DNA from: Ktedonobacterales bacterium
GTDB lineage: Bacteria; Chloroflexota; Ktedonobacteria; Ktedonobacterales; JADMIN01
Reading direction: 5' to 3'
Length of the DNA stretch: 32,000 nucleotides
NCBI GenBank assembly: GCA_030167145.1
Contig: CP126532.1
Coordinates: forward strand, 3,360,001-3,392,000
The position numbers and the translations under genes are program-made. This document shows positions 80 through 32,000 of the stretch, piece after piece (the first letter of the stretch is position 1; every line of letters begins with the position of its first letter). The notes under the pieces were generated by a model. That model was not told the origin of the DNA. It saw nothing but the letters and a program-made list of their open reading frames with translations, and made no database searches.

Positions 80-3000
80 TCAATTGAAAGTATTGAACGA
101 ACCTTCAGTGGTCTCCTCGTCAAATACAAGTTCATCTTGACTGATGAATCTCATTAGAATGTCGTGGTCAAGAATTACCGTTTCCTGACTCAAAGGTCGG
201 CTCGGTATGCCGACACTTTCCTGATTTATTCCATGTACTAGCTGCTGAAATGCGGATGGAAAGTCGTCTCTGTCGCGGAAGTCCACCCATTGGAAAGAGC
301 CCAAAAAGCTACCTAGCAAAGCATCCATGGGACACCCGACGAGAATGCACGGAATGATTGGGATACCCTTCTGATGGTGACGCTCTAGCAGAATGACAAG
401 CTCTTTCTTCTGATAGGGTCCGAGGCCATGTTCGCCACAAAAGATGGCCGCGGATTTACACGATGCAAGCGCGCGCACAATTTGATCCATCCACTCCTGC
501 CCTGGGATGGAATCCCACATCTGAAAATATGGTCTAATACCGCGAAGTGTTAGCTCTTTGGCGTATTGTGACACTTCCTTTGCATCATGCGAGTTGTAAC
601 TTATGAATACGTCACGTTGGTCAACATCATCTTTACCTCTTAATGTCATCGCTGCAACAGCAAGGCTAAGGGTGTGGTCAGCACGCTTCTCCATTTCAAT
701 TAAGTCTTGGGATTGTTGGGATTGTAGGCCCGATTCTGCGCTTCCACTATGGTCGAATACTAACGGCGTTCCACAGTAAGAGCAAAAGGCTTGATTTCGA
801 CTGTCATTGATGAGATCTTGCATTTGGGATGGGTTGACTCGCTTCCCACATTCGGTGTTGGGGCAATGAACTATTCTGTGCATTTGTATGGTTCCACGAA
901 CCGCGTGTATGCGTAGATGATTTACGACAAATTCCTCAAATGTTTGCAGAGTCCTATTTGACGCCCCAACATGAAACAAAGTCAAATGGCCGGGCCCGAT
1001 CCCATCGTCTCGCAGGAGCAATCCGCATGTTCCACCAGCGGTAGCAGTGAAGGTAACTGCACCCTTATATACCTGTGGCTCTCGAAATAAACCGGAGTTC
1101 GCAATGCGTGTGGCAAGCGATGCATATATGAGCTGAATTCGTCCTCTAAACTCGATCACGGCGATCATATTGTCAGGTTCGTCGGGGTAGATGCTCGGTT
1201 TGCTTGCCTGCGAGGGGAACACAAGACATTCGTCGCCTTGTGCTGATCCAACGTTTTCGCGCATGGCCAATTCATGCCCAAGGAGGTCTCGCACCATTTC
1301 TACAATCAGCGTACGTTCTTGAGATTTGTCCTGTATGCGCTCATCAGCGGGAATAGGAAAGTCGCAAGCCTCCACTCTCTTGAGCGGGATACTTCCGAGC
1401 CCATCCTCTGCCTCTCTAACGGCATTGAGCAGCGCTGATGCATAGGTATCAAGTTTTTCTGGTCGAAGCAGGACATAGCTACCGAAGCTGAATCGTCTGA
1501 CCAATCCTGCGTTCTCGAGGTAGAATATGGCAGTCTCGAACTGGGTACGTGTGACTGTTATTGAGTCATCGCGGAAGCTCGAATGCCCGTAAGTCTCGTA
1601 CAGTTCTGACATAGTTGATAGGACGGACTTAGGGTTCCGGACACTTGCATTCATGACGAAGCGCATGACACGGATGAAAACATGAGACGAGTATATAGGT
1701 GTAAGCGAATCCCACTGCACAGAGCGAATGATCTTATCTTTGAGCGCATCTGTACCTAATGCGTACTTTGCACTGGTCTCAACATAGTCGTCGTAGCCAA
1801 GATCTCTGACAATCTCTCGAATGCGCGTGCGGTTCGTCCCAATGCCTGCTAAATCTGACTTACCAGCGACCAGGAACTTGGGCAAACGCCGGGTACCAGT
1901 AAGGCCCTCTTTCTGAGCGTCGCGAAGAGCGTGGTCCCAAAATAAGATTCTGTCGAGCGGATCTGCAGACTCACTATCGAACACGACTACCGCAACCGCG
2001 ACGTCGGATAGGTGAAGCAAGTGGATAATCCGAAAAGCCCGCTGCCCGGCCAAATCCCAAAGAAAGATGTTGCGCACTTCCGTAGCATCACCTGACTTCG
2101 CCTCAGGATTCTCCCAGAGCCGCCAAACATGCCGGTTGTGCGTGGGTTCCGTAGCATGCCACCCTTGCCCCGTAAGCCTGAGAGCAAGCCCTGATTTACC
2201 TACACTTTGTTCACCAACGAGAACAACTTTTGCATTTCGATACTTCACGTCATGTTGATCAGTGCCGCTTTGCTCGTTCACTTGCCGAGAGACATTCGCA
2301 ATACGCACAGTCACTGCCGATGTTGCAGCAGTTGCTAGATCATAGTCATAGGGACGGAAGGCCAAAACGATTGCTCTGGGCCGCAGTGTCGGAAACAAGG
2401 TATTCTGCTCGTCAGCGCTCCTGATCTTGATATCGCGACACTGTTCACCACTAATACTACTGAGCCGTGTCCACGATTCTACTCGCCAAAGCAGCACTGA
2501 ATTCATTGGATTATCTGATTGCGAGGCAGAGGCTGACTGTGAGGCTAAGACTGAGCCGTCGTAGGAAAATGACAGGGAACGAACTGGTCCGGTGTGCTGC
2601 TCAAGGCGACCAATCTCGTCGCCACCTACAGGGTCCCAAACTCGGATTGAGCGATCGTCCGACCCAGAAGTGAGGAAGCGGCTGTCAGGAGACCAGGCGA
2701 TGCAGTTGACTCTGCTTGCATGGCCCTCCCAAGCATGGATTTGTGTCCCGAGGACGTCATCCCAAAGCCGAACTGTGCCGTCGCTTGAACCGGATGCGAG
2801 AAAGCGTCCATCCGGAGACCACGCCACGGCGTTAACGGGTTGCGAATGTCCAATCAATATCTTGTCGGATACATCTCTATCGACATCCCATAAGTGCAAT
2901 GTGTGGTCCTCTCTGGCTAGTGCAACTAGCTTGCCATCGGGTGACCACGCTAGACAATTTACGCGGACAGGATTCTTTGAAGGGCAGACTTTAGTTGCGC

Positions 3001-3631
3001 CTGACACGTGATTCCAGGTGAAGACGGTATTCTCTCCGGCAGAAATGGCAATACGATCATCTCTTGGAGAACAAGCAACCGAGTGAATTTGCCTATCTTG
3101 CCGCTGTAGTGAGGCTCTCGTTGTGCCAGTTGCAAGATCAAACACTTGGATTTCGCCAGTATCCAAACCAAATACAAGTAGATTGCCATCTCGTGACCAT
3201 ACTAGCTTTAGAACAATCGGAGCCGGTGCGGATGCCCTAGGAGTAGCCGTCCGCGGCTGGACCGAGGGAGATGTGGGGCCCAGAGCAGCACGTATCGTCC
3301 GTATCGGAGTCACCTGATTGTTGGCATTTCTTTTGGGGCGTCTTGGAGCGTTGCGCCGCGCCGGGGGCATGTCATTCAAGTAAACGGGCGCGAGCAGTAT
3401 GACAAAGCAAACGAATGTAGCAGACCCCGCGACAAAGACAAGAGGGTTCTTGAAGAGATATGAGGCGATTGCAGTGAGCGCGAGCCAATCTAGCAGATCA
3501 AATCTATGCAATTGGGCGTGATTTGCTACCAAGCCTACGTCATTTGCACAGAGGACAGGGACATAGATCACACTTAGCAGTGCGGTGGAAACGCCTGTAG
3601 CTTTCAGCAACGCAACTAAGCGATTATACAC
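80..3631 (-). CDS. Membrane-anchored WD40 / Roc-type small GTPase / COR-like / zinc-ribbon / TIR multidomain protein (1183 aa)
   Basis: Uninterrupted 1183-codon ORF with a GTG start at 3631 and AAGG about 8 nt upstream. Residues 1-85 are hydrophobic (about 3 TM helices). Residues ~140-390 hold 6-7 WD40 units (GHSQPVNAVAWSPDGRFLASGSSDGTVRLWD; GHASRVNCIAWSPDSRFLTSGSDDRSIRVWD). Residues ~465-642 carry Ras/Roc GTPase motifs: G1 GEQSVGKS, G3 WDLAGQ, G4 AGKSD, G5 ETSAK. Residues ~643-920 look like COR-type winged helices. Residues 922-954 form a zinc ribbon (CPNTECGK...CSYCG). Residues ~1005-1125 are TIR-like (RDVFISYNSHD...YQKKELVILLE; nt ~257-619). GC is clearly lower than in the rest of the window. 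Confidence 0.85.
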   Translation of the reverse strand: MYNRLVALLKATGVSTALLSVIYVPVLCANDVGLVANHAQLHRFDLLDWLALTAIASYLFKNPLVFVAGSATFVCFVILLAPVYLNDMPPARRNAPRRPKRNANNQVTPIRTIRAALGPTSPSVQPRTATPRASAPAPIVLKLVWSRDGNLLVFGLDTGEIQVFDLATGTTRASLQRQDRQIHSVACSPRDDRIAISAGENTVFTWNHVSGATKVCPSKNPVRVNCLAWSPDGKLVALAREDHTLHLWDVDRDVSDKILIGHSQPVNAVAWSPDGRFLASGSSDGTVRLWDDVLGTQIHAWEGHASRVNCIAWSPDSRFLTSGSDDRSIRVWDPVGGDEIGRLEQHTGPVRSLSFSYDGSVLASQSASASQSDNPMNSVLLWRVESWTRLSSISGEQCRDIKIRSADEQNTLFPTLRPRAIVLAFRPYDYDLATAATSAVTVRIANVSRQVNEQSGTDQHDVKYRNAKVVLVGEQSVGKSGLALRLTGQGWHATEPTHNRHVWRLWENPEAKSGDATEVRNIFLWDLAGQRAFRIIHLLHLSDVAVAVVVFDSESADPLDRILFWDHALRDAQKEGLTGTRRLPKFLVAGKSDLAGIGTNRTRIREIVRDLGYDDYVETSAKYALGTDALKDKIIRSVQWDSLTPIYSSHVFIRVMRFVMNASVRNPKSVLSTMSELYETYGHSSFRDDSITVTRTQFETAIFYLENAGLVRRFSFGSYVLLRPEKLDTYASALLNAVREAEDGLGSIPLKRVEACDFPIPADERIQDKSQERTLIVEMVRDLLGHELAMRENVGSAQGDECLVFPSQASKPSIYPDEPDNMIAVIEFRGRIQLIYASLATRIANSGLFREPQVYKGAVTFTATAGGTCGLLLRDDGIGPGHLTLFHVGASNRTLQTFEEFVVNHLRIHAVRGTIQMHRIVHCPNTECGKRVNPSQMQDLINDSRNQAFCSYCGTPLVFDHSGSAESGLQSQQSQDLIEMEKRADHTLSLAVAAMTLRGKDDVDQRDVFISYNSHDAKEVSQYAKELTLRGIRPYFQMWDSIPGQEWMDQIVRALASCKSAAIFCGEHGLGPYQKKELVILLERHHQKGIPIIPCILVGCPMDALLGSFLGSFQWVDFRDRDDFPSAFQQLVHGINQESVGIPSRPLSQETVILDHDILMRFISQDELVFDEETTEGSFNTFN

Positions 3632-10799: not shown

Positions 10800-12164
10800 T
10801 TACTTCCAGATGGAAAATGGGCGATTGTCGCGGGCAAGTGGTGCGGTTTCGCGGTCGTAGGCTTCGGGGTCGTACTCCGCGCGCCACTCCTCATCACTGA
10901 GGCGGCGGGCGTCATTGGCTCGGCCTTCCTCGCGGTACTTGCGTTGGCGCAGCTGCTCGCGGCGGATCATGCGGCGGGCGGCGGCGGTGCTATCTTTGCT
11001 GCCGCGTGTGAGGAAGTGGGGCCGGTAATCGGGGGCGCCGGTTCCGGCATTGGCGCGGGCCGTGTGGAGCAGGCCGCGCCGGGCGGCGCAGTCGTCGCAG
11101 ATATATTCGCGGTCAAGCTCGCCGGTGGCCGCCGCGCCGCAATGGCAGCGGGGGATGATAAGCTGCTCGCCGGTGGTGGGATTAGAGTAGGCGCGTTCGA
11201 GGCACGAGAGGCAGTCGCCAAGCTGGGCTAGCTCCTCGGCGCTGATGGGGCCGCCGCAGGAGGGGCACGCCAGCAGGCCAGCGGGGGCAACGGTGATGGG
11301 GGACTCGGCGGCGGGGGCTGGCTCGACGGCAACCGGCGCGGGCGCTGGGACGGGGTCGGGTAGCGCAGGACCGCGCGGAACCCCGGCATACGAGGCAGGA
11401 TGACTCGTCGCCGGATCGCCCGCAGGCGACTCCCCCGCGTCGCTCGGCTCGGCTGCGCCACCATTGGGGGATGGTGGCTCCGGGTTGGGGTCGTCGTCGT
11501 TGCTTTCGATGCCAATGGCGATGCCAAGCTCGGCGGCGCGCATCTCGGCGTGCGTCATCCAGCGGGCCATAGGCGCAACGGGGTGGGCGATTTCGTCGGC
11601 GGTTGGCTCGCCAGCGAAATAGGCGCAGCGAGCGCAATAGCCGCGCGGGTCAGACTTGACATAATCGGCATCCTTAAAATCGGCATTGCAACGCCAGTGA
11701 CGGCAATAGGCCGGTGCGCGCTCTTCGACGACCACGGCAACTGGCGCGGGGGACTCGACCACGGCGGCGGCAACGGGAGGAACCACGGGGGCGGGGGCGC
11801 TGGCCGAAGCCTGGGCTGGGGCTGCGAGAACCCCAGCGGCGACGAGAAGATGCAACCGCACAAACGCGCAATGGGAGCAGGTGCCCGCGCGGCGGCAACC
11901 GGGGCAGGGGCAGACGAGACGCGCGCCAGCCACACGCACCACATAGGCCACGCCGGCGGAAGAACCGGACGCCACCACCCATGCGCTATCTGCGATGTGC
12001 TCGCCGGGAAGCTCGGCAAGCAGGGCGAGGGGGCGAGACAGGGCACGAAGGCCAGCACGGGCGACGGCGGCGGCGAGGGCGGCGGGCAGGCCAGACGGCA
12101 CGAACCCGGCGGGCAGGGACGGGGCAACGGTGGCGGGGGCGGTGATCGAAGCGGCTGCGCTCAT
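10800..12164 (-). CDS. SWIM zinc-finger and multi-zinc-ribbon protein (454 aa), first gene of the leftward operon
   Basis: ATG at 12164 with GAGGAG 9 nt upstream. There is a SWIM-like CxC...CxH motif (LVCPCPGCRRAGTCSHCAFV, nt ~11868-11915). Further Cys clusters are CRHWRCN...CARCAYF, CPSCGG...CLSC and CHCG...CDDC, separated by Ala/Pro linkers. The ORF-track model (to 12962) runs across the AT-rich region and tandem repeats, so I rejected that part. Confidence 0.7.
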   Translation of the reverse strand: MSAAASITAPATVAPSLPAGFVPSGLPAALAAAVARAGLRALSRPLALLAELPGEHIADSAWVVASGSSAGVAYVVRVAGARLVCPCPGCRRAGTCSHCAFVRLHLLVAAGVLAAPAQASASAPAPVVPPVAAAVVESPAPVAVVVEERAPAYCRHWRCNADFKDADYVKSDPRGYCARCAYFAGEPTADEIAHPVAPMARWMTHAEMRAAELGIAIGIESNDDDPNPEPPSPNGGAAEPSDAGESPAGDPATSHPASYAGVPRGPALPDPVPAPAPVAVEPAPAAESPITVAPAGLLACPSCGGPISAEELAQLGDCLSCLERAYSNPTTGEQLIIPRCHCGAAATGELDREYICDDCAARRGLLHTARANAGTGAPDYRPHFLTRGSKDSTAAARRMIRREQLRQRKYREEGRANDARRLSDEEWRAEYDPEAYDRETAPLARDNRPFSIWK

Positions 12165-12270
12165 GGCTAGATTCTCCTCGGCGAACATTAGATGCAAATG
12201 ACTATTTGATGATTCTATTGTCTCATATTTGATACAAAATGACAACATATAAACGTCGCAAATGTCGAAT
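12165..12270 (-). promoter_or_regulatory. AT-rich island: candidate promoter/operator for the leftward operon, or a DNA-unwinding element
   Basis: This is the only strongly AT-rich stretch inside the element (gatgcaaatgactatttgatgattctattgtctcatatttgatacaaaatgacaacatataaacg). On the minus strand it reads TTGTCA (12245-12240), a 17-nt spacer, then GACAAT (12222-12217). The direct repeats AAATGAC and ATTTGAT each occur twice. Confidence 0.4.
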
Positions 12271-12311
12271 GCGCGCGACGGGGCTGGGCTGCGCCTGGAC
12301 TCCGCGCCAGC

Positions 12312-12619
12312 GGGGGAACGCGGGGGCGGTGGTCGAGGACACTCGCGCCAGCTCGCGCCAGCCGGAAAACGCGGGGACGCCGAGACGCCCCTCGACCAGG
12401 GGCAGGAAAGCCGGAAAACGCGGGGGCAACCGACGCCCGGAGCCGACGCCCGGAGCCGACGCCCGGAGCCGGGAAACGCGGGGCACGCCAGAGCGCCAAA
12501 CGACGCCGAAAACGCGGAGGACGCCGAAAACGCGGAGGACGCCGACCCGCCGAAAAGGCGAAAAATGCGCTCGGCGAGAGCGCCAACCCGACGCCCAACC
12601 GCCGACGAAAACGCGCGTG
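12312..12619. repeat. Iteron-like array beside the AT-rich island
   Basis: There are at least 7 copies of G(G/A)AAACGCGG(G/A)G: 12312-12326, 12361-12376, 12410-12426, 12468-12483, 12502-12519, 12520-12537 and 12604-12619. Also present are 13-nt cgacgcccggagc x3 (12431-12469), 18-nt gacgccgaaaacgcggag x2.5 (12502-12546), and ctcgaccagggg at ~12390 and ~12663. Confidence 0.6.
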
Positions 12620-12795
12620 CGCTCGTCGAGCCGACGCCCGCCGCCGACGCCCAAAGCGCGCGCTCGACCAGGGGCCGAACGACAAGCAGGCGGAGGCCAC
12701 CACCACCCCAAACACCCTCAGAGGGTCTGCTCTCGTCCGCGCGGAGGCGCGGGGTCAAAAAAATTGCTCCCTCTGGTGGGTGGCAACAAGCAGAC

Positions 12796-13027
12796 GTAGT
12801 CCCGTTAGGGAAGCGCCCACCACCCGCGCAGATGCTCGGACGGAAAAAGAGCAAAGTCCCGTTAGGGAAACGGTAGCCATATGCGGAGATGCTCGGACGG
12901 TAGGATGCCCTCTCTTCTCTCGAAGAGAGAACGGGGTCAAAAACACCGTGCTGCTCAATCACGCATCCGCCCTATTGAGGGAAAGAGCAAAGTCCCGTTA
13001 GGGAAACGGTAGCCATATGCGGAGATG
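12796..13027 (+). repeat. Three spaced copies of a ~46-nt unit
   Basis: A perfect 46-mer, aaagagcaaagtcccgttagggaaacggtagccatatgcggagatg, occurs at 12846-12891 and 12982-13027. A diverged copy lies at 12796-12843 (gtagtcccgttagggaagcg...gcagatgctcggacgg). Each contains the mini-hairpin CCGTTagggaAACGG. Confidence 0.7.
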
Positions 13028-22101: not shown

Positions 22102-22761
22102 ATGGCAAACATGACAGACAAGGCGAAGCAGCTACAGCCCGCAGAAGAAACAAGCATACAGCAGAATGCGGCCACGGAGGATCTGCGGGCGCGGGTGTGG
22201 GAACTGCATTTGCGGGGGGCGACGAAGCGGGCGATTGCGGAGGTGGTGGGGGTTCACCGGCAGACAGTGGGGCGCTGGTTGGCGGCGGGATATGCGGAAC
22301 TGGAGGCGGACCGCAAGGCGCGGCAGAAGCGGCTATTGGCGGCGGCGGTGGCGCGCATGCGGCGGGTGCAGGAGCAGGCATGGGATGATCATGATGCGGA
22401 TGATGCGCGTGAGCAAGCGGTGTTAGATGCGGCCCTCTTCGGAACGGCTCAGAGGGGCCGCTCTGCGGCGCTCAGTGCGGCGGCAACGTCAGAGGGGAAC
22501 GATGAGAGAGGCGGCGGCGGTGTTCAGGGGATACGCTTGCAGTCGCAGCGGGCGCAATACCTGCGGGTGGTGCTGGACGCGGAGAAGGAGATTGCGCGGC
22601 TAGAGGGGCTGTACGAGGCGACAGGCGACGAGGGCGCGGCGGTATCGTTCGTGGTCCTTCGTGATGATGGGAGCCGTCTGACGGCCAGCGTGGGGCTGCT
22701 GAGGGGTAAAAGCAGGGCCGCGGCTGCGGTGTCAGAGTCAGAGGCGGCGGAAGATGAGTAG
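22102..22761 (+). CDS. Putative terminase small subunit / HTH DNA-binding protein (about 219 aa; start uncertain)
   Basis: Candidate starts are 22066, 22102 and 22111; the track start 22015 overlaps the portal gene. It has an HTH (GATKRAIAEVVGVHRQTVGRWL) followed by a coiled coil. Its stop overlaps the TerL start by 8 nt. It contains a family C element in frame. Confidence 0.6.
   Translation: MANMTDKAKQLQPAEETSIQQNAATEDLRARVWELHLRGATKRAIAEVVGVHRQTVGRWLAAGYAELEADRKARQKRLLAAAVARMRRVQEQAWDDHDADDAREQAVLDAALFGTAQRGRSAALSAAATSEGNDERGGGGVQGIRLQSQRAQYLRVVLDAEKEIARLEGLYEATGDEGAAVSFVVLRDDGSRLTASVGLLRGKSRAAAAVSESEAAEDE
22433..22473 (+). repeat. Hairpin mini-element family C, copy 6, inside the TerS-like CDS
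   Basis: ccctcttcggaacggctcagaggggccgctctgcggcgctc encodes ALFGTAQRGRSAA. This is a different reading frame from copy 5. Confidence 0.6.
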
Positions 22762-24097
22762 CCGTAGCACAGGTGTACGCGCCAAACGCAGAGCGCATGA
22801 GACGCTGAATCGGAGGCGGGAACTGCTGCTGAATCCCAAGCAGTACGACTTCGTGTTTTCGGAGGCGCGGTTCAGCTTCTACGTGGGTGGCATCGGCGCG
22901 GGCAAGACGTATGCGGGCGCGCTGCGGGCGCTGTTCGCGGGTCAGCAGCTGCCGGGGTCGCTGGGGCTGGTGGGCGCCCCCACGTATCCGATGCTCAGAG
23001 ACGCCACGCAGCGGACGTTCTTCGCGCTCTGCCCCGACGCGCTGATTCGCTCGTGGAACAAGACCGAGCAGCATCTGGTGTTCACCAACGGCAGTGAGAT
23101 ATTGTTCAGGAGTATGGACCAGCCGGATAGGGTGCGCGGGCTGAATCTGGCGTGGGCGTGGCTGGATGAGGCGCCGCTGTGTGGCTACTACGGCTGGCAA
23201 GTGCTGAAGGGCAGACTGCGGCAAGCGGGGTATCCAGCGCGAGCGTGGGCGACGGGGACGCCGCAGGGCCGGGATGGCTACGCGCGGGACTTTGAGTTGG
23301 AGCCACGCGACGGGCATGCGCTGTATCGGGCGAGCACCAGAGAGAATGCGTGCAACCTGCCGCCGGGGTTCATCGAGGACTTGGGCTATACGGGTCAGTT
23401 CGCGGCGCAGGAAATTGAAGGCCAGTTCGTGGCGTTCGAGGGGCTGGTGTACAGCTTCGATGCTGACGCCGTGGACGGGAATGTTCGGAGTTGGGCAGGC
23501 GGGGAGTTCCGTAGCGTGGTCGGTGGCATAGATTGGGGCTACACGAATCCAGCGGCGGCGGTGGTGTTTGGGCTGGATGGCGACGGGCGGGCGTGGCAGA
23601 CTGACGAGTTCTATCAGCGACGGGCAGGGCTGGAAGAGACGGTGCTGCCGGCGATAGTGGCGCTGACACGGCGGTATGGCGTGGTGCGCTGGTATGCGGA
23701 CTCGGAAGACCCGGAGGCGATAGACCGCTTGAACGCGGCGCTGGCACGGGAAGGATTGCAGACACGGGCGCGGGCGGCGGTGAAGGGCGCTGGCTCGGTG
23801 CGGGCGGGGATACAGACGGTGACGGGGCTGCTCTCGAAGCGCGGGGATGGGACGCGGGGGCTGTACGTTGACCCGCGGTGCGTGGCGACGATTGCGGAAT
23901 ATGGGACGTATGCGTATGCGACGGTGGACCGGGCGAAGCGGGATGCGTCGGAGGAGCCGCTGAAGCAGAGCGACCATGCGCTCGACGCGAGCCGGTATGC
24001 GCTGCATGGGGAGCTGGCGGGTGCGGCGAAGACGGAGGCGTACTTGGCGTCCATGCGGGGCAGATTGGAACACGAAAGCGTCTCGGTGGAACACTAA
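22754..24097 (+). CDS. terL: Terminase large subunit (447 aa)
   Basis: Walker A is YVGGIGAGKTYAG and Walker B-like is LAWAWLDEA. Nuclease-domain acidic motifs are GGIDWGYTNPAA, WYADSEDPEAIDRL and SDHALDASRYAL. The start overlaps the upstream gene. Confidence 0.92.
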   Translation: MSSRSTGVRAKRRAHETLNRRRELLLNPKQYDFVFSEARFSFYVGGIGAGKTYAGALRALFAGQQLPGSLGLVGAPTYPMLRDATQRTFFALCPDALIRSWNKTEQHLVFTNGSEILFRSMDQPDRVRGLNLAWAWLDEAPLCGYYGWQVLKGRLRQAGYPARAWATGTPQGRDGYARDFELEPRDGHALYRASTRENACNLPPGFIEDLGYTGQFAAQEIEGQFVAFEGLVYSFDADAVDGNVRSWAGGEFRSVVGGIDWGYTNPAAAVVFGLDGDGRAWQTDEFYQRRAGLEETVLPAIVALTRRYGVVRWYADSEDPEAIDRLNAALAREGLQTRARAAVKGAGSVRAGIQTVTGLLSKRGDGTRGLYVDPRCVATIAEYGTYAYATVDRAKRDASEEPLKQSDHALDASRYALHGELAGAAKTEAYLASMRGRLEHESVSVEH

Positions 24098-25137: not shown

Positions 25138-27087
25138 TCATCGGGAGAAGAGGCGCTGAAGGAGGACGGCGACGAAGAGGCTTTCGATGACAATGCCGGC
25201 AATGGATTCGGCGGTGGCGATCCAGGATTGGACGGTATCGAGGCCGAACTGGGCGAAGAAGACGCGCCCGTGGATGGCGTTGAGGCTGATCTGCGCGGCT
25301 TGGTCGGGGCGTAATGCGTTGGCGCCAGGGCCGCCAAGGGAGCCAGCGAGCCAAAAGAGGGCAGCAAAGAGGGCGACGGTGAGGACGTACGTGATGAGGA
25401 TACGATGCAGGCGGTAGCCATAGCCGACGAGCAGGGAGAGGAAGCCAGAGGCAAGGTAACTGCCGAAGCGGCGCTCGTACCAGCGTTGCTTGCGCTGCAT
25501 GACCTGGGCGCGGTAGGCGTAACGGTCGGCGATGTCGCCGAGGCCCTGGTCTTTGAGTTTCGTGGCGAGCAGGCGATAGGCGCGTGCGGCGGCGGCGCAC
25601 TCGGTGGCGCGGATAGCACGCGATTTGCGCTTCTGATCTTTATCCAAAGCCACACGGGCGATATGCTCGTCGCCCAGGACGGGCACGAGATCCCAATCCA
25701 CGACGCTGAGGTTGGTGTTGTCGAAGGTAGCCTGGTCGAGCCGGACTCTGGTCAAGATGGCCCCATTCAACCGGGTGGTTTTGTCCAGAGAGGCCACGCC
25801 GAGGTCAGCGTCTGCCAGGTGCGCGTCGTTGAGGATAGTCCCTTCCAGGTGCGCCTGTTGCAGGTTGGCTCCTTCCAGGTGCGCCTGTTGCAGGTTGGCT
25901 CCTTCCAGGTGCGCAGCGCGAAGGTCAGCTCCGTCCAGATGCGCATCGTCGAGATGGGCCGCATCAAGGTGGGTTGTGCGCAGATTAGCCCGATCGAGGT
26001 GCGCTCCGCTCAGGTAGGCCCGCTCCAGGTGTGCTTGGTAGAGGTCGGCTTCCTCCAAATGCGCCTGACTGAGGTCGGCCTCCTCCAGGTACGCCGAGTC
26101 GAGGCTGGCCCCGTCCAGATGTGCCTCCCTGAGGCTGGCCCGCTCGAGGTGAGCATCGTTGAGGCTGGCCCGCTCGAGGTGAGCTCGGTTGAGGTCCGTC
26201 CGCTCGAGGTGAGCATCGTTCAAGTCGGCTTCCTCCAAATGCGCCTCAGTGAGGATGGTTCCGTCTAGCAGCGCTGCTCTGAGGTTGGCTCGTTCCAGGT
26301 GCGTTCCGGTGAGATTGACCTGTTCCAGGCGTGCCTTGTGCAGGTCAGCCTCGTGCAGGTCAGCCCCGGTGAGGAAGGCGTCCCATAGGAGCGCCTCGCT
26401 GAGGTCGGCCCCGTCCAGCGTGGCCCCCTCCAGGTGCACCCGTTTGAGTTCAGACTCCTTCAGATGTGCCCCGCTGAGGTTGGCTCGCTCCAGGTGAGCA
26501 TCGTTGAGGTAAACGTGCTCCAAGGTTGCATTGGAGAGGTCAGCCCGTTCCAGGTGTGCCTCAATGAGTGTGGCCCTGTTCAGGAGCGCCTTGCTGACTT
26601 TGGCCTCGTCTAGATAGGCGCGAGAGAGATTGGCCCCAGTCAGGTATGCCTCGCTGAGGTCGGCTCGTTCCAGGTGTGCCTCGGAGAGAAAGGAGTCCAC
26701 CAGGTGCGCCCCTTGCAGGACTGCCCCCTCCAGGTGGAGGTCTGAAAGCGGGAAATGTCCGTAGTCGTGCAACCTGAGTCTAGTGGCTAGGGTGTCGAGG
26801 TCGCTTTCAGGTCCAGCGACGGCGAGCGCCGCGAGCCAGAAGACGTCGGCTCCGGTGAGGTGGACACCTGTGAAGACGCTGGAGTCTACGTGGCGCTCGC
26901 CGTCAGGCTGGGCAGCCCACGCGCGCTGGCGTTCGGTGAGGTCGCGGAGTTCGGCGAGGCGGGCGTCGGAGATGGGGTCACCCCAGCTGTCGAGCCCAGG
27001 TTGGTTCTCGGATGTGGTGGAGAATATGGTGAGGGATGGTGACTGATCAGCGGGCGAGGTGGTGTCGGGTTGGGATGCATCGGTCAT
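25138..27087 (-). CDS. Pentapeptide-repeat protein with a C-terminal two-helix channel-like membrane domain (650 aa)
   Basis: I preferred ATG 27087 (GGAGGG 10 nt upstream) over the track start at 27282. About 380 aa are A(D/N)LxX repeats (HLERADLSEAYLTGANLSRAYLDEA...). The C-terminus has hydrophobic helices flanking a pore-like loop (GYGYRLHRILITYVLTVALFAALFWL...SLNAIHGRVFFAQFG...IAGIVIESLFVAVLLQRL). Confidence 0.85.
   Translation of the reverse strand: MTDASQPDTTSPADQSPSLTIFSTTSENQPGLDSWGDPISDARLAELRDLTERQRAWAAQPDGERHVDSSVFTGVHLTGADVFWLAALAVAGPESDLDTLATRLRLHDYGHFPLSDLHLEGAVLQGAHLVDSFLSEAHLERADLSEAYLTGANLSRAYLDEAKVSKALLNRATLIEAHLERADLSNATLEHVYLNDAHLERANLSGAHLKESELKRVHLEGATLDGADLSEALLWDAFLTGADLHEADLHKARLEQVNLTGTHLERANLRAALLDGTILTEAHLEEADLNDAHLERTDLNRAHLERASLNDAHLERASLREAHLDGASLDSAYLEEADLSQAHLEEADLYQAHLERAYLSGAHLDRANLRTTHLDAAHLDDAHLDGADLRAAHLEGANLQQAHLEGANLQQAHLEGTILNDAHLADADLGVASLDKTTRLNGAILTRVRLDQATFDNTNLSVVDWDLVPVLGDEHIARVALDKDQKRKSRAIRATECAAAARAYRLLATKLKDQGLGDIADRYAYRAQVMQRKQRWYERRFGSYLASGFLSLLVGYGYRLHRILITYVLTVALFAALFWLAGSLGGPGANALRPDQAAQISLNAIHGRVFFAQFGLDTVQSWIATAESIAGIVIESLFVAVLLQRLFSR
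25841..25900. repeat. Perfect 30-bp tandem duplication inside the pentapeptide gene
   Basis: ccttccaggtgcgcctgttgcaggttggct occurs twice, encoding AHLEGANLQQ twice. The next 10 nt repeat again. Confidence 0.9.
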
Positions 27088-27418
27088 GGGTCTGGTGCCC
27101 TCCGAACTGAGGCGGGATGGTGGAACGACGACGACGGGCGGTGGGTGTAGTGTGAGACGCAGTATAGCAGCAGGCGGCGGCGATGGGAAGCGATGGCTGC
27201 CGCAGGGGCTGCTCATTTTATAACCCATCATCCTGGCAGTGATAGTGACGCTCTCGCATCGACGTGAACGACCCCCCAGCAATCGCAGCAGGTACGCCGA
27301 CGCCGTTGACAGGTGGCGGGAGGTTGCGCAACAAGCGAAAGAAATGACAATAATGGTGGCAAGTATTTCGCTAGCTTCTTGTGGTCTGACCTCAACGAGA
27401 ACGGGGGAGTGAGACGGT

Positions 27419-27979
27419 ATGAGAGTAGTGGAGATCTATGCCCGCGGTGGATTCCTGGCATCCGTAGTAATGCGTCCGGGGGAGGACTGGAAAGAGATTG
27501 CCACACGCACCTACGCGGCGCTCCTCTACCCGCGCACGCGGAGTATGCGCGTGTGGAGAATTGTGCCTGTGGATGAGCACTCCTGGGACCTGTGGTTCAG
27601 CGTCTCTTCTGGTGAAGTACATGGAGAGGCGTTCGTGTCGGTGAGCGACCAGGAGGAGCCCGCTGTCGGCGAACCGGGAACCGTGGAGATTTGGGGACCT
27701 AGCGGTGAACTGATGGCAACGGCGGCGCTTCAGCCGCATGTGTACTGGGAAACAGTTGCCGCACGGCTTTTCGCGGCGTTGCGGCAGCCGCTAGCGGTAC
27801 AGCGTATGCGCACGCGAAGAGACCTTTCTGATGACAACGCAGATCTAGAAGACAACGCAAATCGCGTGAAGTTTGGAATAGAACACGGTGCGTATGATTT
27901 TGAAGTGATACAAAAAGCCATCGTGCGGTTGAACAAACCTGTAGGGCAGGCGGAGACTGGTGAGTTGGACCACCATTGA
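27419..27979 (+). CDS. Hypothetical protein with an internal domain duplication (186 aa)
   Basis: ATG at 27419 follows GGGGGAGTGAG. VEIYARGGFLASVVMRPGEDWKEIATRTYAALLYP parallels VEIWGPSGELMATAALQPHVYWETVAARLFAALRQP. It is divergent from the pentapeptide gene across a lower-GC gap. Confidence 0.6.
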   Translation: MRVVEIYARGGFLASVVMRPGEDWKEIATRTYAALLYPRTRSMRVWRIVPVDEHSWDLWFSVSSGEVHGEAFVSVSDQEEPAVGEPGTVEIWGPSGELMATAALQPHVYWETVAARLFAALRQPLAVQRMRTRRDLSDDNADLEDNANRVKFGIEHGAYDFEVIQKAIVRLNKPVGQAETGELDHH

Positions 27980-28066
27980 GCGTCTGTGATACCTGGCGCA
28001 GAGTGTGAACCCTTCGGTGCGCAGGGAACGCTGAGTATGAGGTGGGCGCCTCACTTGACTAGCGTG

Positions 28067-28120
28067 TGTCGGTCATGTCAGTCCTGTCGGTCATGTCAGT
28101 CCTGTCGGACCTGTCAATCT
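28067..28120. repeat. 9-nt periodic tandem repeat (six units, or three 18-nt units)
   Basis: The units are tgtcggtca tgtcagtcc tgtcggtca tgtcagtcc tgtcggacc tgtcaatct. The array overlaps the stop codon of the helicase remnant. Confidence 0.8.
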
Positions 28121-28437
28121 ATGGGGCTGGCTCTGCTGCCGGTGATGAGGTTGACGGCGGTGTCCCAGAGGCTGGGCTGGTAGACGGCGATGTCGCGCTC
28201 GGTGCCCAGGACGATGACGTCGTGCATGGCGCGGGAGATGGCGATGGAGAGCAGGGTGTCGCGTTTGGGGTGCTTGGCGATCGCGTCAAGCTCGGTGAGG
28301 ATGACGACTTTGGCTTCGAGGCCTTTGGCGGCGCGGATGGTGGTGAGGGGGATTTCGTCGGTGTAGAGGCTGTCGTTGAGCCAGCGGAGGCGGTGCTCAG
28401 GCCCACCGCTGCGTCGCCTCGCAGCAGTGGCGTGACC
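28114..28437 (-). pseudogene. Remnant of the C-terminal domain of an SF1 (UvrD/NERD-associated type) helicase-like gene
   Basis: This frame is absent from the ORF track because it has no start codon. My translation is ...PEHRLRWLNDSLYTDEIPLTTIRAAKGLEAKVVILTELDAIAKHPKRDTLLSIAISRAMHDVIVLGTERDIAVYQPSLWDTAVNLITGSRASPID, stop at 28114-28116. T(I)xxAKGLE...V(V)IL and (L/I)S(I)AISRA...(V)L resemble the last SF1 helicase motifs. An in-frame stop lies at 28438-28440, and the only in-frame Met is 37 codons from the end. Confidence 0.45.
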
Positions 28438-28568
28438 TCATCTCCTCCGCCTCCCGCTCTCACAGGTGGCCACGGCAGAGCGACATACACCAGGGGCCCA
28501 GGGCAATTGCATGCCAGACACACGTAATAGCCCCAGGCAATGCCGGGGATGTCGTATTGCTTCTGTAC

Positions 28569-29285
28569 TCAGCCTGAGTAGGTAACGATGTACTCCTGCT
28601 GATTCGTCATGGCTCCGCCGATGTCGAGTGTCAGGGTGTATGTGAGATTGGTGGCATTCGGGTCAATGTTCCCCTGGCCGTTGGAGTCGTTCACATCAAG
28701 GTTGATACGCCCTGCGGTGTAGACATCGCCCACTTCATTTTGATGATAATAGGCGAACACGATAGATCCGCAGGGGCTATCAAGTTGCTGACCATAGAAG
28801 TAGGCGAGTAAGTCCTCGGCGAGTTGCTGGCCCGTGACGCTTGGGTCAACAATGACCTCGCGCTTTGGCTGGGGGCAGACCCCGACAAGGCCCACGCTCT
28901 CGCTGTGGACGGTCTGTATGGCGCTCGCATTTCCTTGTGCGGCAAGCCCACGCAAATCGTCGAGCGTGGTTGGCGGGTAGTGGACGATCCGAGGAGTCGG
29001 CGTGGGCTTGGGTGTGGCCGTCGAGGCTGGCGTATGGGGCGATGTCGCCGTTTGCCCGACCGAGTTGCCGCCATTGCTGCCTGCTGACGAGATGGCCGCA
29101 GCGACGCCGCTGCAGACGACGCACACGGTCAAGAGCGCGACGCACCCGATGCCGATCTGGAGCGGGCGCGATGCCGACCGGAACCAGCCGAACAGGCTGC
29201 GGTGCTGGGGCGGCGCGGGCGGCGCGGGCGGCGCGGGCGGCGGAGTCTGCGGATGCGGTGGCTGCTCAAACGGGGGTTGGTTCAT
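28569..29285 (-). CDS. Membrane-anchored protein: Pro-rich N-terminus, one TM, Thr/Pro linker, globular exported domain (238 aa)
   Basis: The N-terminus is MNQPPFEQPPHPQTPPPAPPAPPAPP, with a 9-nt ggcgcgggc x3 repeat at ~29213-29240. The TM helix is LQIGIGCVALLTVCVVCSGVAAAI and the linker is TPASTATPKPTPTP. The C-terminal domain of about 130 aa has two Cys. Confidence 0.7.
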   Translation of the reverse strand: MNQPPFEQPPHPQTPPPAPPAPPAPPQHRSLFGWFRSASRPLQIGIGCVALLTVCVVCSGVAAAISSAGSNGGNSVGQTATSPHTPASTATPKPTPTPRIVHYPPTTLDDLRGLAAQGNASAIQTVHSESVGLVGVCPQPKREVIVDPSVTGQQLAEDLLAYFYGQQLDSPCGSIVFAYYHQNEVGDVYTAGRINLDVNDSNGQGNIDPNATNLTYTLTLDIGGAMTNQQEYIVTYSG

Positions 29286-29869
29286 TGTTGCGGCTCCTCT
29301 GTGTGCTTACTCTCGTAGTGGCGGTGTTCGATGACTGCCACCTACATCTCACACTACGATACTCCCGCTGTCAAGCAGGGAGCTTGATGCGGCTGCAACA
29401 CTGGACCTGCTCACTGTCGGCTGGCGACGTTGACGGCTGCGATTACAGAGGGGACCAGTGCGAAATGCGGGGGTGACGGTAGCGAGGAGGTATAGCTGCC
29501 GCGCAGATGCGAGAAACGGCATGAAGAACCATCGGGGAACCCCCCACCATTCCTGGCGTCTGAGTCGGTGCAAGTGCTGAGAACAATCCGCGCCCGCTCC
29601 TACTGGCAACTACTGAGAATTATCCATGGACGATACGGCGCTGCCGACGAAAGATTCTACAGTGCGTGGCGCGTTCCCAATTAGCAGTGTTCGCCGTCTC
29701 TACCACAATTGAAAATCTCTATACAACGTGCTAGACTGGCGAGGCAGACGGACGCCGTCTTACTGCCAGGTGGCTGTTGGTCCCGGAAACCTACCTGGGT
29801 CTTAGCCCCACTTACTTTGCGCTGGGCATTCATGGCCGCGCATTGCCCGATCACCAGGAAACGCCGGAT

Positions 29870-31399
29870 ATGAGCAAGATCTTTATCTGCTATCGCCGTG
29901 ACGATAGCGGCGCCGCCTGCGGTCGCATTTATGAGCACCTGTGCAACCACTTCGGCCGTGGCAACGTCTTCAAAGACGTAGATGCCACTCCCTGGGGCGT
30001 GCGCTTCCCGGATCACCTAGCCCAGCAGCTAACCGCTTGTCGCATCGAACTGGTGCTCATCGGCCGGTTCTGGCTGACCCTCAAAACCGCCGATGGCACC
30101 CGGCGACTGGACGCGCCTGATGACTTTGTGCGCACCGAGATCGAGACGGGGCTACGCTCTGGGAAGATCGTTGTTCCCCTCCCGGTGGACAACGCGACCA
30201 TGCCACATGCCGTCCAATTGCCTGCCAGTATTCGCGAGCTAGTCGAGTTCCAAGGTGCGCAGGTGCGAAATGATCCCGACTTTGACACCGATATGCAGCG
30301 CCTCATTCGCCAAGTAGAAGGCTGGCTTCGCGTTCCGCCACCCGCCGACACTCGACCGACGCCTGGAGCAACTGTTGGTGGTGTGGGCGAATCGCAAGAT
30401 GCGGCAATGCTGCAAGCGCAGATCGAAAAGTTGCTGCAAGAGGTCAGTGCGGTAGGCGATGGCGACCTGCGTGTGCAGGCGGAGGTCACGCCAGACACAC
30501 TCGGCGTGCTCGCGGACTCATTCAACTACATGATCGAAGAACTGGCGAAGGTTGTCGGCCGTGTGCAGGCGACTACCTTTCAGGTGACGAACGGGGCCCG
30601 GCGTCTGCTGGACCGCTTTGCAGAGGTCGCCGATGCCTCGCAGACCCAGGCATATCAAACCTCGCAAACGATGCAAGCGGTGGCCCAACTTGCCGACTTC
30701 GTGCAGCTTACCGCCAGCAACGCTATCTCGGCGGCAGAGGCGGCGCGCGAAACATTGCGGAACGCTGAGGGCGGCCAGCACGCCGTGGTGCAGACCATTG
30801 ATGGCATGGTTCACATCCGCGAAAACGTGCAGGAAACCTCAAAGAAGATCAAGCGCCTGGGCGAGCGCTCGCAGGAGGTCGGTGAAATCGTGCGTCTCGT
30901 CGAAGACGTTGCCGACCAGACCAACCTCCTTGCGCTCAACGCCGCCATCCAGTCGGCGACGGCTGGCGAACATGGGCGCGGCTTTGCCGTGGTCGCCGAA
31001 GAAATCCGAATGTTGGCTGAACGTGTCACCGAGGCCACCAAGCGTATCGCTACGCTCGTCAAGGGCATTCAAGGCGATACCTATGCAGCAGTTGTCGCCA
31101 TGGAGGAGAGCACCCAGGAGGTCGTCAACGGCTCTCGGTTCGCCGACGAAGCTGGTGAGGCGCTGCGTCGTATCTACTCTGTTGTAGACCATCAGGCGCA
31201 GATGATCGAAGACATCGCCCGCGCCGCCGGCGAGCGTACAGAGGCGGCAGAGAAGGTTGCGAGCGCGATGAGCCGTCTAGACGAGATCACGAGCCAGACC
31301 AACACCGCGATGCAGGATGCCAGCGCCGGGGTAATGTATCTCGCGGAGCTTGCCGAACAGTTGCGCGCCTCTGTTGCCACCTTCCGCCTGTCAGAGTAG
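29870..31399 (+). CDS. Soluble TIR - HAMP-like - methyl-accepting chemotaxis protein (MCP) signalling-domain fusion (509 aa)
   Basis: I preferred ATG 29870 (AGGA 11 nt upstream) over the track start at 29777. The N-terminal TIR_2-like region is [24 protein letters not shown]...VLIGRFWL...[11 protein letters not shown]...[13 protein letters not shown]. The HAMP-like part is [30 protein letters not shown]. The MCP hairpin core is [49 protein letters not shown] saw no TM helix. Confidence 0.88.
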
Positions 31400-31657: not shown

Positions 31658-32000
31658 CTAGCCGCCGGTGACGCGGCGGGTGAAGGCGGCAATGAAGATG
31701 CCTTCGATGAGGAGGCCGAAGACGGCTTCGAGGCCGGAGAGGGCGGTGACGGTGTCGTTCTCGGTGAGACCCTTGGGTTGGAGGCCGCGCCCGTGGAAGG
31801 AGGTGACGCTGAGGACGAAGGAGTCGATGATGTTGCGGACGGTGGGGAGGACGAGCGCGTGATTGGCGCCGATCCAGAAGGCGAGTGCGAAGACGGTGAT
31901 GACGGTGGCGTAGGTGGCGAACAGGCGCCAGATTTCGTCGCCGTAGCCTGCGAAGGTGCCGAGGAGCCAGGAGAAGAGCCAGCGCCCATAGTGGCGGCTG
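31658..32000 (-). CDS. Partial CDS (3' end only): channel-like two-helix membrane domain paralogous to the C-terminus of 25138-27087
   Basis: This frame is not in the ORF track because its start lies beyond the window. My translation is ...SRHYGRWLFSWLLGTFAGYGDEIWRLFATYATVITVFALAFWIGANHALVLPTVRNIIDSFVLSVTSFHGRGLQPKGLTENDTVTALSGLEAVFGLLIEGIFIAAFTRRVTGG, stop TAG at 31658-31660. The layout parallels ...LLVGYGYRLHRILITYVLTVALFAALFWL...AIHGRVF...ESIAGIVIESLFVAVLLQRLFSR. Confidence 0.6.
   Translation of the reverse strand, partial: SRHYGRWLFSWLLGTFAGYGDEIWRLFATYATVITVFALAFWIGANHALVLPTVRNIIDSFVLSVTSFHGRGLQPKGLTENDTVTALSGLEAVFGLLIEGIFIAAFTRRVTGG

Follow-up and report, generated by a model that had tools for sequence, protein, structure and literature searches.

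What does a TIR domain do at the head of a chemoreceptor stalk? The question is raised by a gene in a 32,000-nucleotide stretch of contig CP126532.1 from an uncultured, soil-type Ktedonobacterales bacterium (hereafter the window), whose product was described in the original prediction as a cytoplasmic TIR domain of about 135 residues followed by a Pro-rich linker, a HAMP domain and the conserved tip of a methyl-accepting chemotaxis protein (MCP), with the TIR domain serving either as the sensory input of a soluble chemoreceptor or as an output scaffolded by it. Clustering is what activates TIR enzymes, and few bacterial proteins self-assemble as strongly as chemoreceptors do. Joined in one natural protein, the two would represent a novel means of controlling a TIR domain, and a chemosensory array would for the first time be connected with NAD+-based signalling or immunity.

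Architecture of the TIR-headed protein

The gene is intact and selectively maintained, and its soluble product consists, from the N-terminus to the C-terminus, of a SARM1-like TIR domain, a flexible tether of about 20 residues, a HAMP domain and a complete 40-heptad MCP hairpin. The features of the locus are as follows.

29709..29737, + strand: sigma-70-like promoter match, TTGAAA-17-TAGACT with extended TG (consensus match only; about 130 nt upstream of the ATG)
29870..31399, + strand: TIR-HAMP-MCP gene, intact, coding for 509 aa plus stop codon
29870..30328, + strand: TIR domain, aa 1-153, SARM1-like (profile, PDB, structure-model and family evidence)
30137..30139, + strand: codon of E90, catalytic-type glutamate (family-invariant; aligns with SARM1 E642)
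30329..30388, + strand: Pro-rich disordered tether, aa 154-173 (its end part, PGATVGGVG, is homologous to the linker of the paralogue P0002)
30389..30553, + strand: HAMP domain, aa 174-228 (AS1 174-197, connector 198-207, AS2 from 208)
30554..30961, + strand: N-terminal arm of the MCP hairpin, aa 229-364 (profile, AF2 and PDB matches)
30614..31171, + strand: segment aa 249-434, missing from four 'tipless' relatives (P0280/L014, P0146, P0152 and P0281)
30962..30976, + strand: hairpin U-turn AGEHG, aa 365-369 (E367), within the conserved tip [28 protein letters not shown]
30977..31396, + strand: C-terminal arm of the MCP hairpin, aa 370-509 (AF2; the ORF ends directly after the hairpin, without a low-complexity tail)

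The ORF spans 29777..31399 (+), with the start ATG at 29870 preceded by AGGA, and has the codon-position GC pattern of a real gene. Its 509-aa product, beginning [12 protein letters not shown], is identical to P0001, which is annotated as 'Methyl-accepting chemotaxis protein' in a Ktedonobacterales MAG. The predicted order of domains was recovered by Pfam, phmmer, AF2 and Foldseek, and the predicted absence of a TM segment and of a ligand-binding domain also holds for the whole 509-aa protein, with a KD19 maximum of 1.08 versus 2.70 in the paralogue P0002.

Although the Pfam TIR_2 profile (PF13676) scores below threshold on residues 4-145 (20.9 bits; cutoff 28), the assignment of the N-terminal domain stands because of four independent results. 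In a phmmer search against the PDB, the SARM1 TIR domain was matched over the whole domain with an E-value of 1.7e-5, the FISYRR motif of SARM1 being aligned with FICYRR. The AF2 model of the domain (pLDDT 85.5) has the flavodoxin-like TIR fold, and its top 30 Foldseek matches are all SARM1/TIR-1 TIR domains with E-values down to 3e-9, the isolated TIR-domain chains among them having TMt values of 0.73-0.85; the SARM1 TIR itself is matched with an E-value of 2.8e-9 and TMt of 0.81-0.85, and plant and bacterial TIRs come next. An exhaustive search of cluster representatives found 31,422 that match the domain at E<=1e-3, and all 79 of the closest representatives scanned pass the TIR_2 threshold. 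The originally predicted TIR fold with a catalytic-type glutamate is thus upheld, the domain being larger than supposed at about 153 residues, and since the N-terminus has this fold and this residue, the objection of a non-TIR fold without the glutamate falls away. E90 (the first E of VRTEIE) is invariant in both family alignments, A1 and A2, and lies opposite the E of HKEI in SARM1 (E642 by chain numbering), which we take, in line with the title of an E642A PDB entry, to be the catalytic residue. Every other family-invariant residue of the TIR domain is also retained.

The 20-residue tether between TIR and HAMP is modelled with pLDDT below 50, and its length and sequence differ among relatives. 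The HAMP domain scores above threshold with Pfam (PF00672, residues 183-225, 26.9 bits; cutoff 25) and is modelled by AF2 as two helices, 174-197 and 208 onward, joined by a low-confidence connector. The MCP signalling domain is matched with high significance (PF00015, residues 290-474, E-value 3.8e-41, 141.2 bits; cutoff 34.6), as are MCPs in the PDB, with E-values down to 2.7e-28. The AF2 model shows an antiparallel hairpin, with a helix from 208 to 364, a turn at 365 and a helix from 366 to 503; the arms are of about 138 and 142 residues, which makes the hairpin about 40 heptads long. The tip carries three changes relative to the family consensus, of which two are conservative (I to V) and one is M to T.

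Origin in a pilus-type receptor, and relatives

The HAMP-MCP half arose by recent duplication from the single PilJ/PixJ-like receptor of the genome: residues 174-509 show 89% amino-acid identity to residues 134-469 of P0002, encoded on the same 5.07 Mb contig at a locus 2.17 Mb away, and the homology extends into a P0002-specific linker. The protein shares with PilJ/PixJ 40-heptad MCPs the paralogous HAMP domain and hairpin, the length in heptads and the intact tip motif, its HAMP domain being the counterpart of the second HAMP in the paralogue. It differs from them in having lost the two-TM anchor, the first HAMP and the C-terminal low-complexity tail and in carrying a TIR domain at the N-terminus instead, as well as in its distance from the receptor operon and its faster rate of amino-acid change. 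Among about 119 orthologues of P0002 the layout is an N-terminal region of about 130-140 residues (two TM segments and a HAMP in the five that were read), a 336-residue core and a tail, the TIR-headed protein being the sole exception.

No che genes are present in the window, as had been predicted; the suggestion that the genome be checked for cheA and cheW led to the operon of P0002, which places both a cognate CheW and a cognate CheA on the contig of the TIR gene. The gene order there is PatA_N (PATAN), REC (CheY), REC (CheY), CheW, MCP and a hybrid CheA, the last being a 1474-residue Hpt-Hpt-HATPase-CheW-REC kinase; in another species the same order is found upstream of the receptor, and the contig ends before any CheA gene. 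Neither CheR nor CheB is encoded within the operon, and the methylation consensus [ASTG][ASTG]xx[EQ][EQ]xx[ASTG][ASTG] is absent from both the TIR-headed protein and P0002. PilJ of P. aeruginosa is another PilJ/PixJ-type MCP of type IV pilus systems. The operon is of the type IV pilus (Tfp/Tax-like) chemosensory type and not of the flagellar type; an example of such a system is Synechocystis Tax1, PixJ-PixL-PixG/PixH (PMC11181946; bioRxiv 10.1101/2021.06.11.447907). The recent copying of the resident PilJ-like receptor, its CheW/CheA operon and the pilus-type character of the system had all been missed in the original prediction.

The two sides of the tether have different affinities. The TIR-side motif WLxxxPPxDxxPT is common to this protein and P0280, and the stalk-side motif PGAxxGGxGESQDAA is common only to this protein and P0002. 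P0280 is one of only four other TIR-HAMP-MCP-derived proteins found among 5.8 billion proteins, all of which keep the TIR domain, the Pro-rich linker, the same HAMP and a bundle with the same C-terminal arm, likewise without the tail, but have lost residues 249-434, including the CheA/CheW-binding tip, by one and the same internal deletion. As judged from identity tables and counts of shared substitutions, these tipless proteins form a clade of their own, and the stalk of the full-length protein groups not with them but with the resident PilJ-like gene; identity to the receptor in the HAMP and N-terminal arm is 95% in the full-length protein versus 51-81% in the tipless relatives. The TIR domain of P0280, which occurs on at least 33 contigs from many sequencing runs, is 77% identical to that of the full-length protein. 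In P0281 the same HAMP-bundle module is headed by another TIR subtype (ThsB_TIR-like), so the pairing of TIR and module has been selected more than once. No neighbouring gene is conserved across the family members. The full-length form is a singleton, and it may either be ancestral, held similar to pilJ by gene conversion, or stem from a recent independent fusion.

The pairing of a TIR domain with a chemoreceptor stalk is very rare, and the supposition that this coupling is uncharacterised agrees with the literature, in which we found no paper describing a TIR-headed chemoreceptor. The family has very few members, all of them from uncultured Ktedonobacterales. Together, the membrane receptor, the TIR-headed full copy, the tipless forms and the second TIR subtype provide a series for testing what a TIR domain needs from its scaffold.

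A misjoin of a TIR gene to the pilJ-like gene during assembly was considered and is effectively refuted. The genome has a second copy of the MCP half, and a second assembly breaks inside this repeat at window position 30550; with 12% of its nucleotides different from those of P0002, however, the MCP half is a separate locus, and the TIR-to-HAMP junction was found again in a separate Logan assembly of SRR22113990, one contig of which is 100% identical to window 25885..30550 and spans TIR, linker and HAMP. Related fusions also occur in other datasets.

Relative to P0002, the copy has a dS of 0.41, a dN of 0.061 and an omega of 0.15. The derived amino-acid changes number 33 on the branch of the TIR copy versus 2 on that of P0002, with synonymous changes split 20 to 25, the division of dS between the branches being rough, as dS to the outgroup is about 1.1-1.2. 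On the TIR-copy branch non-synonymous change proceeds at about 0.3-0.4 of the synonymous rate; omega is about 0.05 in the HAMP domain and about 1 or above in the last 56 residues of the C-terminal arm, which evolve fast. As judged from these substitution patterns, the HAMP domain and tip are still constrained despite the faster evolution of the copy, and from omega, this constraint and the branch changes it follows that the gene is not decaying. In the copy, 14 of 210 near-invariant columns also carry a deviant residue, a count that no other receptor-family member reaches and that, together with the rate in the last 56 residues, could reflect a loss of ancestral signalling properties.

Input or output

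Of the two roles originally offered for the TIR domain, the evidence leans to the scaffolded output and makes the input less favoured. We tentatively prefer a reading, which falls somewhat short of an even chance, in which the TIR domain works as an output, tethered to a scaffold that dimerises or forms arrays, and not as a sensor that drives the HAMP domain. This reading is favoured because the tether is disordered and variable, because the tip has been deleted in four relatives and because TIR domains of this subfamily are promiscuous N-terminal modules, joined to many unrelated C-terminal domains. The protein would dimerise through its HAMP domain and four-helix bundle, and its conserved tip would bring it into trimers-of-dimers or arrays together with CheW, CheA and the PilJ-like receptor. 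Flexible tethers at the membrane-proximal end would keep the TIR domains locally concentrated. Like those of SARM1 or TIR-STING, they would respond to proximity by cleaving NAD+ or by making a nucleotide signal; activation of TIR enzymes by proximity or oligomerisation is described in PMC9402430 and PMC7414095. The tipless relatives also count against the proposal, since their existence makes array docking unnecessary for the core function of the family; the tip of the full-length protein, though constrained, could be a leftover of the recent duplication, and a dimer with two TIR domains may be too small to activate an NADase. A stronger form, in which the chemoreceptor array is itself the activation platform and its state is turned into NAD+ cleavage or a nucleotide second messenger by a TIR copy co-assembled with receptor, CheW and CheA, seems distinctly unlikely. 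What the array reports could in that case be the load on pili, contact with a surface, the adsorption of phages to pili or an attack by a phage protein, and the protein would amount to a bacterial SARM1 analogue coupled to a motility sensor.

That the TIR domain acts instead as an input or adaptor is, in our estimate, rather unlikely. It would bind NAD+, a nucleotide signal or the cytoplasmic TIRs of the numerous TIR-TM-ectodomain proteins in its subfamily, and its occupancy or clustering would alter CheA through HAMP and tip; pilus-based motility would thereby respond to a cue, with the protein as a MyD88-like adaptor that links TIR receptors to a chemosensory kinase. In canonical receptors HAMP domains transmit from their N-terminal to their C-terminal side. 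In keeping with such a role, HAMP and tip are complete and constrained, the genome has the cognate CheW and CheA, and 56 of 107 relatives with an N-terminal TIR have a TM segment, mostly single-pass, about 50 residues past the TIR domain, which would place their TIRs at the same sub-membrane level as that of the copy. The tether, being disordered, Pro-rich and variable in length, is nevertheless ill suited to passing on conformational signals, the tipless relatives keep TIR and HAMP while unable to control a kinase, and the invariance of the catalytic-type glutamate in all relatives points to an enzyme rather than a pure adaptor. In an integrated decoy or guard, the PilJ-derived stalk would be a bait, and an antagonist of the pilus receptor that bound it would trigger the TIR domain and abortive infection. 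Type IV pili are common phage receptors, the bait stays close to the resident receptor in its HAMP and N-terminal arm and in its HAMP omega, the same module carries two TIR subtypes, and a prophage-like module, a type I restriction subunit and another TIR protein lie nearby; still, the idea is purely inferential with no known antagonist, the tipless baits have diverged much further from the receptor, and no defence system is matched, which leaves it improbable. The chimera could also be a by-product without a selected function of its own, being either neutral or active only as a soluble dominant-negative towards the PilJ-like array. Within the receptor family no other member evolves as fast as this one, the C-terminal end of which is under little apparent constraint; its full-length form is a singleton, and it is flanked by duplicated pentapeptide-repeat genes, which suggest a rearranged region. 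We consider this very doubtful, as the 509-codon frame has stayed open over a dS of about 0.4 with non-synonymous change held well below the synonymous rate, HAMP and tip are under strong constraint, the TIR domain keeps all invariant family residues, the same kind of fusion has been kept in at least four other lineages, and P0280 is widespread.

Neighbourhood and known systems

The neighbourhood contains a type I HsdR, a prophage-like head module and a WD40-Roc-TIR protein, the TIR of which has no detectable relation by BLAST to that of the TIR-HAMP-MCP protein, and makes a role in defence or stress plausible. Neither the gene nor its small neighbours could be assigned to a system with PADLOC or PHROGs, the only PADLOC matches being weak and partial ones to ThsB (18.7 bits) and ZorA. 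The ThcB4 profile covers residues 3-61 only (23.8 bits; cutoff 220), and no partner gene (ThsA, STING, Argonaute or other) lies in the window or in the 7 kb beyond, so the protein does not belong to Thoeris or another catalogued defence system by full-length match and partner. No tRNA or other integration landmark was found in the window.

SARM1, a metazoan NAD+ hydrolase, is the best match to the TIR domain in both sequence and structure, including the SYRR-type motif and the position of the catalytic glutamate, and by analogy both proteins appear to tether their TIR domains by a linker to an oligomeric scaffold. The present protein differs in having neither ARM nor SAM domains, its scaffold being the HAMP/MCP coiled coil, in an identity of only about 25%, and in that its NADase activity is putative. 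As in TIR-STING (PMC9402430), Thoeris ThsB and SPARTA TIR-APAZ, a TIR domain with a catalytic-type glutamate is joined to a module that sets the oligomeric state, whereas the matches to these systems are weak and partial and their partner genes are absent near the gene. Cytoplasmic chemoreceptors headed by PAS or CZB domains are likewise soluble and combine an MCP domain with a globular N-terminal domain that replaces the periplasmic sensor, but the head here is an enzyme-type TIR on a disordered tether and not a known sensor domain. In a scan of a genome collection from which the source genome is absent, TIR relatives at 41-52% identity were found, none of them with an MCP downstream of the TIR. 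A closer TIR domain, 72% identical, is encoded by P0121 in assembly GCA_050695615.1, whose contig stops within the linker and whose upstream gene is unrelated to that in the window.

Domain anatomy and authenticity of the TIR–MCP gene

The gene occupies the following positions in the window:

29777..31399, + strand: open frame of the TIR–MCP gene
29870, + strand: ATG start, preceded by AGGA; 509-aa product

Its codon-position GC follows the real-gene pattern for the host genome of ~62% GC. The original prediction of a TIR domain fused to HAMP and MCP domains without a TM segment was confirmed by Pfam, phmmer, AF2/Foldseek and KD19. Pfam placed MCPsignal at aa 290–474 (E 3.8e-41), HAMP at aa 183–225 (26.9 bits, cutoff 25) and a sub-threshold TIR_2 at aa 4–145 (20.9 bits, cutoff 28), which was accepted because four other lines of evidence support the TIR independently. 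A phmmer comparison with PDB sequences aligned the whole domain with the SARM1 TIR (E 1.7e-5), with FICYRR corresponding to FISYRR and VRTE(90)IE to VHKE(642)IV. The AF2 model of the TIR, computed from ten homologues (pLDDT 85.5), gave SARM1/TIR-1 TIR domains as the top 30 Foldseek matches (E down to 2.8e-9; TMt 0.73–0.85 where the chain is an isolated TIR domain); TIRs of plants, animals and bacteria came next. In an exhaustive search, 31,422 cluster representatives reached E<=1e-3, and E90 is invariant across the homologue alignments.

In the full-length model, the TIR (aa 1–153, pLDDT > 90) is followed by a disordered tether (aa 154–173, pLDDT < 50), HAMP helices at 174–197 and from 208, an unbroken helix up to 364 and, past a turn at 365, the returning helix (366–503). 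The hairpin arms comprise ~138 and ~142 residues, and the hairpin is therefore of the 40-heptad type. The maximum KD19 is 1.08, compared with 2.70 in P0002, a PilJ/PixJ-like membrane receptor encoded on the same contig. The protein thus has an MCP domain, a HAMP domain and a TIR fold with a catalytic-type Glu.

The window covers positions 3,360,001–3,392,000 of a 5.07 Mb contig of a Ktedonobacterales MAG, and an assembly artefact joining TIR to MCP was effectively ruled out. The independent Logan assembly of SRR22113990 contains a 4,666-bp contig, 100% identical to window positions 25885..30550, which covers the TIR, linker and HAMP. The MCP half is a distinct locus, since 12% of its nucleotides differ from those of the nearest paralogue.

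Origin of the stalk in a PilJ-like receptor family

The best 120 matches to the whole protein cover only its C-terminal two-thirds and form a single orthologous receptor family across Ktedonobacterales, some members of which are labelled PilJ by some sources. These receptors have an N-terminus of 130–140 aa (in the five members read, it comprises two TM helices and the first HAMP), a 336-aa core containing the second HAMP and the hairpin, and a G-, Y-, P- and Q-rich tail of 90–300 aa. The TIR–MCP protein retains the second HAMP and hairpin exactly, whereas the TIR and tether stand in place of the TM anchor and first HAMP, and the protein lacks the tail, ending two residues past the hairpin (ATFRLSE*). 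Within the family (P0002–P0120; P0002 is encoded at L001 10001..11872, in the sequence of its operon), the receptors carry two HAMPs in tandem and hardly any periplasmic loop; the core is 75–92% identical across Ktedonobacterales and the tail is highly variable.

The closest member is P0002, at about 1.2 Mb on the same contig, which is 89% identical to aa 174–509 of the TIR–MCP protein, and the homology reaches into a linker motif exclusive to these two proteins (PGAPGGGMGESQDAA in P0002). The P0002 operon encodes, in order, a PATAN-domain protein, a CheY-like REC, a REC, CheW, the MCP and an Hpt-Hpt-HATPase-CheW-REC kinase (1,474 aa), and the order upstream of the receptor is the same in another species, on a contig that ends just past the receptor gene. 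This composition is that of the cyanobacterial Tax1/Pix and Pil-Chp type IV pilus systems (PMC11181946; bioRxiv 10.1101/2021.06.11.447907). The original prediction had noted no che genes in the window; the genome does encode pilus-type cognate CheW and CheA, 2.17 Mb from the TIR–MCP gene.

Between TIR–MCP and P0002, dS is 0.41, dN 0.061 and omega 0.15. Changes were assigned to branches by means of an outgroup orthologue taken from another species: 33 derived amino-acid differences fell on the TIR–MCP side and 2 on that of P0002, with 20 and 25 synonymous codon changes, respectively; the protein sequence of the TIR–MCP copy has therefore changed far more quickly. Among 210 near-invariant columns it differs at 14, the highest count of any family member (median 1). 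The omega of its branch is ~0.3–0.4, well below neutrality, with ~0.05 in the HAMP and ~1 or above in the final 56 residues, all rough values as dS to the outgroup is ~1.1–1.2. The tip region has three changes, of which I344V and I347V are conservative and the third is M364T. Constraint is uneven, the HAMP and tip being constrained and the C-terminal end not. The GC of the gene (0.61) matches that of the host che region (0.62), unlike that of the adjoining prophage-like segment (0.65).

Relatives of the fusion and the proposed role of the TIR

No MCP domain occurs in the 79 closest TIR representatives scanned; their partners include FGE-sulfatase (9), BNR, TPR, PQQ, GUN4 and periplasmic-binding domains, among others. 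Among the relatives with an N-terminal TIR, about half contain a TM segment ~50 aa past it, and these are mostly single-pass. A metagenome scan yielded the contig L014, with a 314-aa ORF (P0280) whose TIR is 77% identical to that of TIR–MCP:

L014 1537..2481: P0280; TIR, linker shorter than in TIR–MCP, same HAMP, short MCP-derived bundle

P0280 jumps from the start of the N-arm directly into the final 75 residues of the C-arm, the missing segment being TIR–MCP aa 249–434, tip included. It occurs on at least 33 contigs from many runs, and its gene adjoins that of a Guanylate_cyc-NB-ARC-TPR protein. The search for the TIR–HAMP–MCP architecture that the original prediction had called for detected, among 5.8 billion proteins in a profile search, only four further members, P0280, P0146, P0152 and P0281 (311–342 aa), all tipless, and full-text literature searches returned no account of a TIR fused to HAMP or MCP. 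The four have a common deletion junction and several common substitutions, and therefore form one clade from one deletion, although the TIR of P0281 is of a different subtype (TIR_2 75 bits, with a ThsB_TIR match). Their genes are solitary at the loci examined, with no che genes and no common neighbour. The TIR–MCP stalk groups with P0002 (95% identity in the HAMP and N-arm) and not with the tipless clade (51–81%). The full-length form may be ancestral, gene conversion having kept it close to pilJ, or it may be a recent independent fusion. By membership tests, TIR–MCP does not belong to Thoeris or another catalogued defence system. The fusion is real, very rare and lineage-restricted, and its evolutionary origin is clear; the mechanism outlined below is a proposal.

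The protein is soluble and consists of TIR, tether, HAMP and hairpin; its TIR carries a catalytic-type Glu, its HAMP and tip are under constraint, and cognate array genes are present elsewhere in the genome. Between the two original readings of the TIR, sensory input or scaffolded output, output is favoured because the tether is disordered and variable, because the tipless relatives retain TIR, HAMP and bundle without the kinase-control surface, and because a second TIR type is also joined to the same HAMP-bundle module. A role as input or adaptor is possible, in keeping with the conserved tip, but the same tether and tipless relatives argue against it. A decoy or guard and a neutral chimera are rival explanations. 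With the TIR as output, TIR–MCP would dimerize via its HAMP and bundle, and its tip may dock into trimers-of-dimers with the PilJ-like receptor, CheW and CheA. The tethered TIRs would then be held at the membrane-proximal end, where their closeness could let NAD+ cleavage or signal production occur, by analogy with SARM1, TIR-STING filaments (PMC9402430) and induced-proximity experiments (PMC7414095).

Genomic neighbourhood

The surrounding features are as follows (L012 overlaps the window and extends beyond its end at 32000):

80..3631, - strand: WD40-Roc/Ras-TIR_2 protein, 1183 aa; C-terminal TIR_2, 71.6 bits
14153..25072, + strand: prophage-like head and packaging module, upstream of TIR–MCP, also with an HTH protein
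14153-16558, + strand: protease/major-head fusion of this module
16659-18194, + strand: phrog_13692 of this module
20529-22076, + strand: portal of this module
22754-24097, + strand: large terminase of this module
25138..27282, - strand: pentapeptide-repeat membrane protein, upstream of TIR–MCP
31658..33271 (L012 6015..7628), - strand: second, paralogous pentapeptide-repeat protein
L012 444..4248, ~3.7–7.5 kb past the window end, opposite to TIR–MCP: type I restriction HsdR (1106 aa), DUF1643 protein and a 521-aa protein that matches no family

The WD40-Roc/Ras-TIR_2 gene lies in a segment of much lower GC (0.51, against about 0.62–0.65), and BLAST detected no relationship between its TIR and that of TIR–MCP. 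The order of the prophage-like module is reversed relative to the usual terminase-portal-capsid, and within the window it is accompanied by no recognized integrase, tRNA or tail genes. The pentapeptide-repeat paralogues (41% identity, with a common C-terminal membrane domain) flank a 4.4-kb segment with the TIR–MCP gene and, upstream of it, two small uncharacterized genes. The WD40-Roc-TIR, prophage-like and HsdR neighbours suggest a variable, defence-rich region, which is no proof of a defence role for TIR–MCP.

At 10800..12962, the GC is the highest of the window (0.70) and the AT skew changes sign; many long ORFs without family matches overlap there on both strands. Two tandem repeats were also observed: an intergenic one at 28067..28116 (9/18-bp unit TGTCGGTCATGTCAGTCC, 2.8 copies) and one at 29208..29242 (9-bp unit GGGCGGCGC, 3.9 copies), which codes for the PPAPPAPPA run of a 238-aa gene product.
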